5,452 bases of DNA. Origin: a virus (Duplodnaviria; Heunggongvirae; Uroviricota; Caudoviricetes). The stretch lies in the IMG/VR virus record IMGVR_UViG_2778261005_000009; one strand, written 5' to 3'. Below the pieces are notes generated by a model. The model saw only the letters and a program-made list of their open reading frames with translations, was not told where the DNA came from and ran no database searches. Shown here in pieces: positions 2,940-5,452 of this stretch. Position 1 is the stretch's first letter, and every line of letters begins with the position of its first letter. The position numbers and the translations under genes are program-made.

Positions 2940-3497
2940 ATGAGCACTATTACCAGAGAACGCGCGGAGATTAAATCATACATCACAGGCTTCCTGAGCG
3001 ACTCGGCGCACGATAACAAGTCTTCAGACAGCCTGCTGGCTAATGTGTTTCGTATCGCGCTGGCATCACTGGAAGCAGAGCCGATAGCAATGGTAGTGCC
3101 TGATGAAATGGATTTGCTTACCTGCCATCTCGACGGTGTAACTAAAACATATGCTGATGGCTGGAACGCCTGCCGCGTCGCCATGCTTCAGGCCGGAAAC
3201 TTTCGGGAAAATAAGAATTCGTCAACCAACAATTTTCGGGAAATCTCGGAAACGTCAACCAGATCTCCGATAACTCTGGATGGCTGGATAAGCTGTACTG
3301 AGCGAATGCCTGAAAAGAGCCAGAACGTGCTTATTTCGATGAATATCGATAGCGAGGCTGGGCCATTAATATATTCCGCACGCTATCTCGGAGGCACGTT
3401 CCGGCGCGGAGGTATAGCAGTTAGTCCGGGTAATGATCTTAGGCAAGCAACCCACTGGATGTCGCTACCAGAACCGCCGCAGGAGGTGAATCAATGA
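2940..3497 (+). CDS. DUF551-like phage protein (185 aa)
   Basis: ATG 2940 preceded by AAGGA (2927-2931) at 8-nt spacing; stop TGA 3495-3497. The C-terminal segment (ITLDGWISCTERMPEKSQNVLIS...YLGG..F) resembles the DUF551 domain as I recall it. The linker contains an in-frame tandem duplication (see repeat feature). Confidence 0.75.
   Translation: MSTITRERAEIKSYITGFLSDSAHDNKSSDSLLANVFRIALASLEAEPIAMVVPDEMDLLTCHLDGVTKTYADGWNACRVAMLQAGNFRENKNSSTNNFREISETSTRSPITLDGWISCTERMPEKSQNVLISMNIDSEAGPLIYSARYLGGTFRRGGIAVSPGNDLRQATHWMSLPEPPQEVNQ
3198..3263 (+). repeat. Imperfect in-frame tandem duplication (2 x 33 bp) inside the DUF551-like gene
   Basis: aaCtttcgggaaaATAAGAATTcgtcaaccaAC (3198-3230) versus aaTtttcgggaaaTCTCGGAAAcgtcaaccaGA (3231-3263); encodes NFRENKNSSTN / NFREISETSTR. 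Confidence 0.6.
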
Positions 3498-3577
3498 CCT
3501 GGCCTGAAGCATTCACAACGGTAGGAATTGCGATGGCGGTGGCGCTGGTGGTGTATTCGATTTGCCGCTGGGGATAA
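3494..3577 (+). CDS. Putative 27-aa hydrophobic micro-protein, translationally coupled to the DUF551-like gene
   Basis: ATG 3494 forms an ATGA overlap with the upstream stop and is preceded by AGGAGG (3481-3486) at 7-nt spacing; stop TAA 3575-3577. Product MTWPEAFTTVGIAMAVALVVYSICRWG is a single predicted TM helix. It falls below the ORF-track length cutoff. The SD may be coincidental, since it also encodes residues of the upstream protein. Confidence 0.35.
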   Translation: MTWPEAFTTVGIAMAVALVVYSICRWG

Positions 3578-3612
3578 AAACGGTTTGCGGGAAAAGGATA
3601 GTTAAGTAGAAT
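3574..3612 (+). promoter_or_regulatory. Candidate promoter for the hok mRNA
   Basis: Candidate -10 elements GATAGT (3597-3602) or TAGAAT (3607-3612), with a weak -35 (TTGCGG 3585-3590 for the latter). Placement is constrained by the 5'-3' complementarity, which requires the transcript to start at or before about 3613. No strong consensus match. Confidence 0.25.
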
Positions 3613-3630
3613 TGCTGCGGGTGCTTGAGG
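3613..3630 (+). promoter_or_regulatory. 5' element of hok mRNA complementary to its 3' end (tac/fbi-like long-range pairing, 5' partner)
   Basis: tgctgcgggtgcttgagg (3613-3630) pairs antiparallel with cctcaacgcacccgcg (3993-4008): 6 bp, a one-nucleotide bulge (C3999), then 10 bp including one G-U. Confidence 0.45.
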
Positions 3631-3664
3631 CTATCTGCCTCGGGCATGAACACCAACGGCAGAT

Positions 3665-3739
3665 AGAGAAAAGCCCCAGTTAACATTACGCGTCCTGCAA
3701 GACGCCTAACATTAATCTGAGGCTCAATCTATGAACGGC
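3665..3739 (-). ncRNA. Putative Sok-like antisense RNA (type I antitoxin), about 75 nt
   Basis: Minus-strand sigma70-like promoter (below) would start transcription near + coordinate 3739. The transcript is antisense to the upstream in-frame ATG (3731) and its SD (GAGG 3719-3722). It ends in a terminator-like structure on the minus strand: outer stem ccucag/cugggg (3717-3722 with 3674-3679, one G-U), inner stem gcguc/gacgc (3690-3694 with 3701-3705), then U-tract cuuuucucu (+ 3665-3673). Ends are approximate. Confidence 0.4.
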
Positions 3740-3745
3740 AAATCT

Positions 3746-3774
3746 AGGTTAGCCTCTTACGTGCCGAAAGGCAA
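3746..3774 (-). promoter_or_regulatory. Candidate promoter of the Sok-like antisense RNA
   Basis: On the minus strand: -35 TTGCCT (+ coordinates 3774..3769), 17-nt spacer, -10 TAACCT (3751..3746). The -35 overlaps the hok SD region on the opposite strand. Confidence 0.35.
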
Positions 3775-3787
3775 GGAGAAGCAGGCT

Positions 3788-3943
3788 ATGAAGCAGCAAA
3801 AGGCGATGTTAATCGCCCTGATCGTCATCTGTTTAACCGTCATAGTGACGGCACTGGTAACGAGGAAAGACCTCTGCGAGGTGCGAATCCGAACCGGTCA
3901 GACGGAGGTCGCTGTCTTCGTAGACTACGAATCTGAGAAGTAA
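3788..3943 (+). CDS. hok: Hok/Gef-family type I toxin (51 aa membrane peptide)
   Basis: ATG 3788 preceded by AGGAG (3774-3778) at 9-nt spacing; stop TAA 3941-3943. Product MKQQKAMLIALIVICLTVIVTALVTRKDLCEVRIRTGQTEVAVFVDYESEK aligns along its length with plasmid R1 Hok ([52 protein letters not shown]) and is very close to chromosomal HokD/RelF as recalled. The track ORF 3731..3943 is an in-frame upstream extension (ATG 3731), possibly a mok-like leader reading frame. Confidence 0.9.
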   Translation: MKQQKAMLIALIVICLTVIVTALVTRKDLCEVRIRTGQTEVAVFVDYESEK

Positions 3944-3992
3944 GAGACCAGGCGGGGGAGTAATCTCCCGCCACCTCTGATGTGTCAGGCAT

Positions 3993-4008
3993 CCTCAACG
4001 CACCCGCG
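3993..4008 (+). promoter_or_regulatory. 3' element of hok mRNA complementary to its 5' end (fbi-like, 3' partner)
   Basis: cctcaacgcacccgcg (3993-4008) is the antiparallel partner of 3613-3630. It implies a transcript of about 400 nt, similar to the known R1 hok mRNA length. A further imperfect hairpin lies at 3951-3972 just after the hok stop. Confidence 0.45.
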
Positions 4009-4009
4009 C

Positions 4010-4037
4010 TTTACCATACTGAAAATGCTGTTTGAAT
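4010..4037 (+). promoter_or_regulatory. Candidate sigma70 promoter with extended -10 for the YgiW/BOF-family gene
   Basis: -35 TTTACC (4010-4015), 16-nt spacer, TG at 4029-4030 followed by -10 TTGAAT (4032-4037). Position fits a transcription start about 20 nt upstream of ATG 4063. Weak consensus. Confidence 0.3.
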
Positions 4038-4062
4038 GTTCATCTCTGAAAGAGGACTATGA

Positions 4063-4407
4063 ATGAAAAAGGTATTGATTGCAGCACTTATTTCCGGTGT
4101 GTCTTTTGGCGCTTTTGCACAGCAGGGTGGTTTCCAGGGGCCAGAAGCAGAGCGTTCAACAGTAGCGCAGGCAAAAGAACTGAAGGATGATGCATGGGTT
4201 ATCCTTGAAGGGAGCATCGTTAAAAAAGTGGGTGATGAACGTTATGAGTTTCGTGACAATAGCGGGACAATTGTCACGGATATTGATGACAGCGTATGGG
4301 CCGGGCAGAATGTTTCTCCGAAAGACAAAGTAAGAATTGAGGGTGAAATTGATAAAGACCTGAGCAGTGTTGAAGTTGATGTAAAGGCACTGAAATTATT
4401 AAAGTAA
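4063..4407 (+). CDS. YgiW/YdeI (BOF, bacterial OB-fold) family periplasmic protein with signal peptide (114 aa)
   Basis: ATG 4063 preceded by AGAGGA (4051-4056) at 6-nt spacing; stop TAA 4405-4407. N-terminal signal peptide MKKVLIAALISGVSFGAFA followed by QQGGFQGP, then C-terminal IVTDIDDSVW...VRIEGEIDKD...VEVDVKALKLLK, which matches the BOF/YgiW pattern. Confidence 0.88.
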   Translation: MKKVLIAALISGVSFGAFAQQGGFQGPEAERSTVAQAKELKDDAWVILEGSIVKKVGDERYEFRDNSGTIVTDIDDSVWAGQNVSPKDKVRIEGEIDKDLSSVEVDVKALKLLK

Positions 4408-4424
4408 CCGCCCCTGCTTGTTAA

Positions 4425-4453
4425 GCCCGTCTTACTGACGGGTTTTCTGTTTG
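4425..4453 (+). terminator. Rho-independent terminator downstream of the YgiW/BOF-family gene
   Basis: Stem GCCCGTC (4425-4431) / GACGGGT (4437-4443), loop TTACT, followed by a T-rich tract (ttttctgtttg), 18 nt after the stop codon. Confidence 0.8.
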
Positions 4454-4479
4454 TACATTCCGGCGTATTGCCTTACAAT
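4451..4479 (+). promoter_or_regulatory. Candidate sigma70 promoter for the 4529 ORF / DUF968-like gene
   Basis: -35 TTGTAC (4451-4456), 17-nt spacer, -10 TACAAT (4474-4479). A TGACA-N5-TGTCA palindrome (4502-4516) sits between the -10 and the SD. Confidence 0.35.
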
Positions 4480-4528
4480 TCGCGCAGTCAGCCTGAACAA
4501 CTGACACCTGCTGTCACCGGAGAATCCG

Positions 4529-4801
4529 ATGACACAACACATAAAATCCCACAATTCTGAAGCCGACCCGGAAATTAAGCAGGGGAGGCGTTTTCGTGCG
4601 CCTCAGTATGGCTGGTTTCACTATCTGTTCTGTACGATCGATGAGGCAGATATGCTTCAAGAGGCGTATCTGCGTCGCGGTGTCCGTGTGGAGCGGAGTC
4701 TGAACGCTGATCGTCTGACCTGGACCGTTTCTGTATATCTTCCTGTTCGTGCACATCTGCCACGGACACATGCCTGCTACCGTCAGCGCGTCTGGAGGTA
4801 A
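4529..4801 (+). CDS. Small hypothetical protein (90 aa), possibly Rem-like; alternatively the shifted 5' part of the DUF968-like gene
   Basis: ATG 4529 preceded by GGAGA (4519-4523) at 5-nt spacing; stop TAA 4799-4801. The N-terminal about 60 residues look protein-like; the last about 25 (R/H/P-rich) look like out-of-frame translation of the overlapping DUF968-like frame. Position between a hok locus and a DUF968 gene parallels the rem-ydfU arrangement in the K-12 Qin prophage, as recalled. Confidence 0.45.
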   Translation: MTQHIKSHNSEADPEIKQGRRFRAPQYGWFHYLFCTIDEADMLQEAYLRRGVRVERSLNADRLTWTVSVYLPVRAHLPRTHACYRQRVWR

Positions 4802-5452
4802 TGTGCGGGTATTACTTCGACCTGTTCTGGTTCCGGAACTCGGGCTGGTGGTCCTTAAGCCCGGTCGTGAATCATTGCCAGTTTTTCATCGCGGCAGGGT
4901 GCTGGTGGAGCCGGAACCGAAAAACATGCGGGCGCTGCCATCTGGAGCGGTTCCTGCTGTTCGCCAGCCGCTGGCGGAAGATAAATCACTGCTGCCATTT
5001 TTCAGCGATGAGCGGGTGATTCGTGCAGCTGGCGGCGCTGGTGCACTGTCTGACTGGTTATTACGTCACGTGAAATCCTGCCAGTGGCCACACGGCGATT
5101 ATCATCACAGCGAAACCGTTATTCACAGTTACGGTGCTGGCGCAATGGTGTTGTGCTGGCACTGCGACAACCAGCTGCGCGACCAGACCTCCGAATCACT
5201 TGAGCAACTTACTCAACAAAATCTGACAGCCTGGATGATTGACGTCATACGCCATGTAATGAATGGCACGCAGGAGCGGGAATTATCGCTGGCTGAATTA
5301 TCCTGGTGGGCAGTCTGCAATCAGGTGGTGGACGCATTACCTGAGGCAGTATCGCGTCGCTCTCTGGGATTACCGGCGGAAAAAATCCGCTCCGTATACC
5401 GTGAAAGCGACATCATACCGGGAGAACAGACCGCCACCAGCATACTGAAGCA
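4770..5452 (+). CDS. DUF968-like protein with HNH-like Cys/His motif, 3'-truncated by window end
   Basis: Frame 0 is open from the stop at 4716-4718 to the end of the window and is absent from the ORF track because it has no stop. First ATG is 4770 (weak SD); alternative GTG 4749. Translation ..VKSCQWPHGDYHHSETVIHSYGAGAMVLCWHCDNQLRD.. contains a C..H..HH..CxxC arrangement reminiscent of HNH zinc-binding motifs. The DUF968 assignment is from memory of prophage YdfU-like proteins. Confidence 0.65.
   Translation, partial: MPATVSASGGNVRVLLRPVLVPELGLVVLKPGRESLPVFHRGRVLVEPEPKNMRALPSGAVPAVRQPLAEDKSLLPFFSDERVIRAAGGAGALSDWLLRHVKSCQWPHGDYHHSETVIHSYGAGAMVLCWHCDNQLRDQTSESLEQLTQQNLTAWMIDVIRHVMNGTQERELSLAELSWWAVCNQVVDALPEAVSRRSLGLPAEKIRSVYRESDIIPGEQTATSILK

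Follow-up and report, generated by a model that had tools for sequence, protein, structure and literature searches.

We infer that the BOF gene of the prophage segment studied here is probably the 3′ cistron of a hok/sok–BOF cassette, co-transcribed with the toxin on an mRNA that starts at the hok promoter, and that its product is exported through Sec and functions in the periplasm as an OB-fold protein. Taken alone, the gene is unremarkable and has been annotated before; what seems to be undescribed is the architecture, in which a cargo gene would reside within the 3′ portion of the mRNA of the hok toxin. Such an arrangement would provide a promoter-less route to lysogen-stage cargo expression, in which the cargo rides on a constitutive and very stable toxin mRNA. 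Throughout, "the window" denotes the whole stretch of DNA that was analyzed, a 5,452-nucleotide segment of a lambdoid prophage, and coordinates refer to it unless another sequence is named.

The BOF gene and its prophage setting

The window recurs with 100% identity over the query in EHEC chromosomes, for example that of O157:H7 PV15-279, at the Qin site beside rspB. Its genes run in the order DUF4014, DUF551, hok/sok, the BOF open reading frame (ORF), a 90-aa ORF and DUF968, and in the genome copies DUF968 is followed by RusA and then by either a DUF1133 gene (PV15-279) or an antiterminator Q gene (locus L009). The gene is familiar from Stx phages, where it is annotated at 98% DNA identity as L0136 in 933W and as H0152/orf73/ECs1244 in VT2-Sakai (Sp5), and many Stx phage records label it "protein ygiW precursor". 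Its PHROGs entry, phrog_1230, is listed there with unknown function. Among 5,426 complete E. coli genomes, 550 (~10%) carry the cassette at 4008–4453, in one to four copies each. The features on which the argument rests are the following.

3585–3612, + strand: hok promoter, TTGCGG-16-TAGAAT, the top + strand sigma70-like site in 3500–4100 (score 9.4)
3619–3630, + strand: tac element, the 5′ end of the hok mRNA, which pairs with fbi
3619–3793, + strand: hok/sok regulatory region, matching Rfam RF01794 at 105.6 bits (gathering score 59)
3774–3746, − strand: sok promoter, TTGCCT-17-TAACCT, the top − strand match (score 8.9)
3731–3943, + strand: mok (70 aa), overlapping the hok toxin ORF
3788–3943, + strand: hok toxin ORF (51 aa), Pfam HOK_GEF E 1.1e-22, annotated as a Hok/Gef family protein
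3951–3973, + strand: hok 3′ hairpin, from the predicted fold
3993–4005, + strand: fold-back inhibition element (fbi), the end of the hok RNA domain, from the predicted fold
4008–4062, + strand: hok–BOF spacer of 55 nt, holding a Shine–Dalgarno sequence (SD) and a promoter-like motif at 4010–4037
4063–4407, + strand: BOF/YgiW-family gene, encoding a 114-aa precursor with a predicted signal peptide (residues 1–19) and a mature OB-fold domain, from profile, structure and selection analyses
4423–4453, + strand: intrinsic terminator, with no other from the hok promoter to the following gene, from fold and scan
4452–4479, + strand: promoter-like site TGTACA-16-TACAAT upstream of the 90-aa ORF/DUF968 operon, from a consensus scan

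The family assignment rests on profiles and structure alike. The protein matches Pfam BOF (PF04076) at 115.1 bits against a cut-off of 25.8 and NCBIfam NF033674 at 136.8 bits against 35, it passes TIGR00156 marginally (112.3 bits against 108.15), and it matches the sequence of PDB 1nnx, E. coli YgiW, at E 3.5e-29. Its AF2 model has pLDDT >90 over residues 30–114 and forms a five-stranded OB-fold barrel, for which the best Foldseek match is again 1nnx YgiW (E 8e-12, TM 0.91), with other OB folds next. With its K-12 relatives the protein shares 47% (YgiW) and 37% (YdeI) identity, and it falls short of the YdeI equivalog NF007471 (64.8 bits against a cut-off of 179). Nor does it look like the chromosomal YgiW orthologue, for which qseBC synteny and high identity would be expected: the K-12 gene adjoins qseBC, whereas the gene in the window is prophage-borne and fused to hok. 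With YgiW (1nnx), Salmonella VisP, YdeI/OmdA and Vibrio SipA it shares the Pfam/NCBIfam family, the OB-fold, an N-terminal Sec signal and the GGFxGP linker motif; unlike the YgiW family, it is 114 rather than 130 aa long and has one GGFxGP repeat rather than two.

The signals for translation, export and transcript termination are equally legible. By sequence rules, a Sec-type signal peptide comprises MKK (n-region charge +2), a 15-residue hydrophobic core and AFA|QQ, and it is kept in all alleles. So is the SD, AAGAGGA at 4050–4056, placed 6 nt upstream of the start codon; some of its bases are paired in the predicted fold (unpaired probability 0.05–0.43), a point against the hok–BOF transcript proposed here. 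The terminator consists of a 9-bp stem (4423–4445) and a U-rich tail, with a folding energy of about −14 kcal/mol (z −2.6). Three alleles of the gene differ by a dS of 0.37–0.55 at a dN/dS of 0.17–0.22, which marks a functional gene under purifying selection. An earlier note on this DNA, made from the sequence alone, had claimed a YgiW/BOF-family product, a signal peptide, a good SD and a clean rho-independent terminator, and each of these is borne out here, the signal peptide by its sequence features. The boundaries that it gave, 4010–4453, likewise agree with the comparative ones, since homology to ordinary hok loci stops at 4007–4015, just past fbi, and phage-context homology stops at 4454. 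It had also placed the gene between the hok locus and the DUF968-like gene; hok is indeed upstream, but the 90-aa ORF (4529–4801), which precedes DUF968, was omitted. Three further candidates in and around the gene were set aside: an overlapping + strand ORF at 4059–4190, whose ATG at 4059 is missing from other alleles; an overlapping − strand ORF at 4011–4217; and an antisense promoter-like site at 4424–4395, which is not conserved in the L009 allele and is attributed to chance.

What the protein does is approached through its relatives. YgiW, YdeI and SipA are periplasmic, bind outer-membrane proteins, and are needed for tolerance of peroxide, cadmium and antimicrobial peptides (PMC6370654). 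By analogy with relatives that are 37–47% identical, a stress-tolerance role is our best guess for the phage protein. The nearest protein clade, at 58–67% identity and with the same MKK...AFAQQ signal peptide, comprises prophage cargo on the tail-fibre side, a hok-linked copy (locus L092) and plain chromosomal genes; this mixture of prophage and chromosomal members indicates that prophages captured BOF genes more than once. Prophage BOF genes of 127–128 aa from Salmonella, Citrobacter and another enterobacterium (P0029, P0022 and P0008) are lambdoid-prophage cargo like the gene in the window. P0008 is hok-linked too and lies in a nin region before DUF968 and Q, whereas the Salmonella and Citrobacter copies follow tail-fibre genes, have no hok and share an unrelated, conserved AT-rich upstream region. 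Among the matches listed in a scan of genome contigs, there were only distant chromosomal ygiW genes (Rahnella, Ewingella and others).

The hok/sok partner and the constancy of the linkage

All the parts of a canonical hok/sok locus are present in the window: promoter, tac, mok/hok with its Hok/Gef ORF, the sok region, the 3′ hairpin and fbi. The predicted +1 of the hok promoter, near 3619, agrees with the position at which the Rfam match begins, and the 5′–3′ pairing of tac (3619–3630) with fbi (3993–4005) has a probability of ~0.87 both in a 394-nt hok-only RNA and in an 835-nt hok+BOF RNA. The hairpin/fbi region (3951–4005) is nearly invariant across all loci, and the near-identical hok copy in Sp5 is the experimentally studied hokW(-sokW). 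The departure from the canonical plan comes after fbi. Where canonical loci have a terminator directly 3′ of this element, the window has ~450 nt with a second, unrelated cistron interposed, and by fold and scan there is no hairpin with a U-tract between hok and BOF, the first being that at 4423. A 2026 survey of Hok diversity and genomic localisation makes no mention of ygiW, BOF or an OB-fold.

Comparison with BOF-less loci makes the nature of this departure more concrete. In the hokD locus of K-12 Qin and in that of strain HBUT-L (L014), the terminator AACCCGCTTCGGCGGG directly follows fbi and occupies the exact point where the BOF cassette of the window begins; it is missing from the window. 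The most telling evidence that BOF lies within the hok unit comes from a diverged locus, L092. This lambdoid nin region encodes a BOF protein 59% identical to that of the window next to a diverged hok CDS, and its elements run in the order hok promoter (score 12.1), tac, hok, fbi, a 90-nt spacer, BOF and then AAACCCGCTTAGGCGGGTTTTTT, which is the canonical hok terminator; its sok-model match reaches 110 bits and its fbi is the same. The BOF terminator of the window differs in sequence from the canonical one, which speaks against a shared hok–BOF unit. On the simplest reading of these arrangements, a BOF cistron would have been inserted between fbi and the hok terminator and stayed there. Given that BOF is always fused to hok and replaces the hok terminator, and given the order of elements in L092, the unit most likely consists of hok promoter, hok, BOF and terminator. 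The minimum-energy structure of the 924-nt L092 RNA lacks tac–fbi pairing; folds of long RNAs being unreliable, this miss counts only weakly against the proposed hok–BOF transcript.

The linkage holds across settings that otherwise have little to do with each other, as hok directly precedes BOF in three unrelated contexts. One is the nin region before DUF968 (the window, L009 and L092). Another is the right end of Sp5/933W, where the pair comes after a different gene set and, in Sp5, belongs to a different operon. The third is on the chromosome but outside any prophage, with a cytochrome c peroxidase gene on one side and apbC/metG on the other. What the three settings have in common begins at 3572, just upstream of the hok −35, and Sp5-type and nin-type sequences diverge directly after the terminator, at 4454. 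All 46 IMG/VR loci with upstream sequence have 53–55 nt between the end of fbi and the ATG; past the BOF terminator, 35 of them continue into nin-type and 11 into Sp5-type sequence, and in none of them does the 114-aa BOF lineage occur without hok. The converse does not hold, hok-type sequence being found in at least 4,695 of the 5,426 complete E. coli genomes as against 550 for the BOF cassette. The constancy of the pairing could stem from a single ancestral event rather than from function.

Phage morons, such as bor and lom of lambda and those of the HK97 type, are the obvious point of reference (Juhala/Hendrix et al. 2000). Like them, the BOF gene is cargo that is present or absent at the same position, has a lower GC content than its flanks (~45% for the cassette), ends in a terminator and has a plausible benefit for the lysogen; unlike them, it has no convincing promoter of its own, appears to borrow the hok transcript and moves only with hok. 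The claim of the earlier note that the gene is a moron thus holds in part: it is a cargo gene in a lambdoid prophage with its own terminator, and the insertion is polymorphic (BOF is present in some phages and absent from the K-12 Qin and HBUT-L hok loci), but a convincing promoter did not turn up in the scans. Its further description as a self-contained, independent transcription unit misfits the locus, because no terminator separates hok from the BOF gene, which is always fused to the hok 3′ end in place of the hok terminator.

Two side observations concern hok itself. Within the same cassette, the dS of hok is ~0.06 as against ~0.4–0.5 for BOF (window 3788–3943 and 4063–4407 compared with L004 and L009), a contrast suggesting that the numerous copies of hok undergo gene conversion or that RNA structure strongly constrains its synonymous sites. 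Just upstream of the hok promoter, at 3494–3577 (+), a 27-aa hydrophobic ORF (MTWPEAFTTVGIAMAVALVVYSICRWG) overlaps the DUF551 stop codon, and a different 34-aa single-helix ORF takes the same pre-hok position at 3379–3483 in L004 and 530–634 in L009; these small hydrophobic ORFs may encode membrane proteins associated with these hok loci.

The spacer, the proposed transcript and competing readings

Does the BOF gene have a promoter of its own? The earlier note had proposed an extended −10 promoter (TTTACC at 4010–4015 and TG-n-TTGAAT at 4029–4037, with a 16-nt gap), from which BOF would be expressed as a classical moron, independently of hok and ending at 4423–4453. The motif lies at a suitable distance, its predicted +1 near 4044 would keep the SD in the leader, the low GC content of the cassette fits acquired cargo of this kind, and the Salmonella and Citrobacter relatives on the tail-fibre side, which have no hok upstream, must have a promoter of their own. 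However, the candidate at 4010–4037 lacks the critical A at position 2 of its −10 (the −11 A). We scored promoter sites by a sigma70-like position-weight scheme, with the hok and sok promoters as positive controls, which it ranks as the top matches on the + and − strand, respectively; the candidate scores 5.96, close to the mean of 5.2 (sd 2.2) for the best site in shuffles of the same interval. In the 81–82%-identical alleles L009 and L004, the corresponding sequence is GTGTTCAT, with usable sites scoring 3.3–3.9 at best; the motif has been lost despite purifying selection on the gene. Between alleles the spacer (4008–4062) is 66–80% identical, with the SD alone conserved, and across the spacers of four alleles, that of L092 included, the same scoring gives only shuffle-level sites, none of them conserved. 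The best-scoring site in the spacer, TTGAAT-17-GACTAT (7.54), was rejected: its start would fall downstream of the ATG, and it thus cannot express the BOF gene. A separate consensus scan of the spacer found no + strand promoter; the same scan missed the hok promoter itself, and such scans can overlook real promoters. As consensus and position-weight scans are both insensitive, a weak, activator-dependent or alternative-sigma promoter may still lie in 4008–4062. Taken with the lack of a terminator that would insulate BOF from hok transcription and with the unfailing company of hok in the 114-aa lineage, these results make an independent promoter unlikely, though it keeps some chance of being right, and nothing in them supports the proposed extended −10.

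Under the preferred reading, in which BOF is the 3′ cistron of the hok mRNA, transcription from the hok promoter (3585–3612) would yield an RNA of ~835 nt that ends at the terminator at 4423–4453. Its 5′ 390 nt would fold into the closed, translationally inert hok domain, while the 3′ part would be translated into the BOF protein like any other mRNA. Since lysogens make hok mRNA constitutively and it is long-lived in them, a repressed prophage would be expected to express BOF steadily, and in the lytic cycle phage promoters upstream would contribute further BOF transcript by read-through. Once in the periplasm, the protein would most likely act like its relatives, associating with outer-membrane proteins and, by the same analogy, helping the cell to tolerate peroxide, metals or antimicrobial peptides. 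In MG1655-Sp5 lysogens that had not been induced, Takada et al. detected stable hokW mRNA by northern blotting on 6% polyacrylamide, with transcript sizes not given (PMC8621323). Expression of BOF in the lysogen is plausible, judged from the architecture of the locus. Literature searches on ECs1244, ECs1245 and L0136 returned no relevant paper and no expression or phenotype data for the phage BOF copy, and the supplements of the Sakai ribosome-profiling and EDL933 translatomics studies have no entry for these genes.

Two other readings concern the stage at which the protein is made and the task it performs. Expression could be essentially lytic, arising from antiterminated read-through from the early promoters, and the protein would then serve the phage, for example through envelope conditioning or help with release together with Hok, rather than the lysogen. 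The gene has the orientation and position of a member of the early-right operon, on the same strand as the upstream replication genes and the downstream DUF968; an antiterminated polymerase would pass the terminator; and HokW protein, which helps to release the phage, is not seen until the prophage is induced, yet hokW mRNA is already there before induction (PMC8621323). Moreover, a downstream cistron with its own SD escapes the sok/fbi translational block, the copy in Sp5 sits in a different operon, and the cassette at the non-prophage chromosomal site, without phage promoters, is still under purifying selection, all of which leaves lytic-only expression very unlikely. Alternatively, BOF could provide superinfection exclusion instead of general stress tolerance by acting on outer-membrane proteins against phages or colicins that use porins, with a logic like that of the Cor/Lom-type morons of tail regions. 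This would suit both the porin partners of its relatives (YgiW–OmpF, YdeI–OmpD and SipA–OmpA; PMC6370654) and the closest clade, which in prophages of Salmonella and Citrobacter comes directly after tail-fibre genes, where exclusion genes are typically found. Against it, the same clade also includes ordinary chromosomal genes that lie beside stress genes, a PADLOC search with the BOF gene gave no match, and we found no experimental link between BOF and phage resistance; we regard exclusion as highly improbable.

Returning to BOF as a cistron of the hok mRNA, one may ask whether the fusion is functional or merely historical. A functional fusion strikes us as distinctly unlikely. If it were so, the ~450 nt of translated mRNA that separate fbi from the terminator would alter the 3′-exonucleolytic step by which hok is normally armed, and Hok activation could come to depend on events during prophage induction. 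Alternatively or additionally, the BOF protein could contact the C-terminal domain of Hok, which is periplasmic, or shield the envelope from the toxin. The module would then have three components, namely a toxin, an antisense RNA and a periplasmic partner.

Implications and observations around the cassette

Several consequences would follow for the study of hokW and of EHEC virulence. Constructs such as those of PMC8621323, with a deletion or tag located after hokW, may affect the downstream BOF gene as well. With fbi displaced from the 3′ end of the RNA, it must also be asked how hok would be armed by 3′ processing. On the epidemiological side, an Irish case–control GWAS found "ygiW_2", "group_5720" (mokC-like), ydfU_1 and ybcQ_1 to be jointly associated with HUS, and it treats the four as separate factors, their adjacency unremarked (PMC11950266). 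Judged by their names, these probably correspond to the adjacent cassette and backbone genes BOF, hok/mok and DUF968 (window 3731–5452) and Q. If they are indeed neighbors in this cassette and its prophage backbone, the HUS signal may arise because they are linked to Stx2a-type prophages, rather than because each is an independent virulence factor.

The sequence beyond the BOF terminator has features of its own. The promoter-like site at 4452–4479 falls outside the BOF cassette and marks the return of the nin-region backbone; its TACAAT context is also found upstream of the K-12 (Qin) homologue of the 90-aa ORF. Located directly after the terminator, it could set transcription going again for the 90-aa ORF, DUF968 and RusA. 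A 27-nt element (GTCAGCCTGAACAACTGRCAYCTGCTG) at 4486–4512 recurs in HBUT-L (L014, 2081–2107) ahead of another nin-region gene, DUF1367, and may act as a linker or mark a module boundary where lambdoid phages recombine.

Two records from outside the usual range of the cassette deserve mention. On the 90-kb plasmid pHX138.261ft_1 (L013), an IS1B-truncated BOF gene at 1478–1570 retains its last codons, followed by the terminator and the 90-aa ORF; the plasmid, on which there are phage-like genes as well, may be a phage-plasmid. The plasmid match H142 had been considered as an "empty site" and was rejected, being an IS1-truncated remnant of the BOF gene. In the phage search, one record named "Actinobacillus..." matches the E. 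coli hok–BOF region at megablast stringency, and could be mislabelled or contaminated, or could represent a genuine cross-genus transfer.

Finally, K-12 Qin (L003) contains an unannotated 92-aa ORF at 4307–4585 (−), between rem and ydfU. It is homologous to the 90-aa ORF of the window at 4529–4801 (35% identity, E 2e-18), and its stop abuts the GTG of ydfU, the same arrangement as that of the 90-aa ORF. In K-12, rem fills the slot between hok and the 92-aa ORF as BOF does between hok and the 90-aa ORF in the window, which points to alternative cargo at one site.
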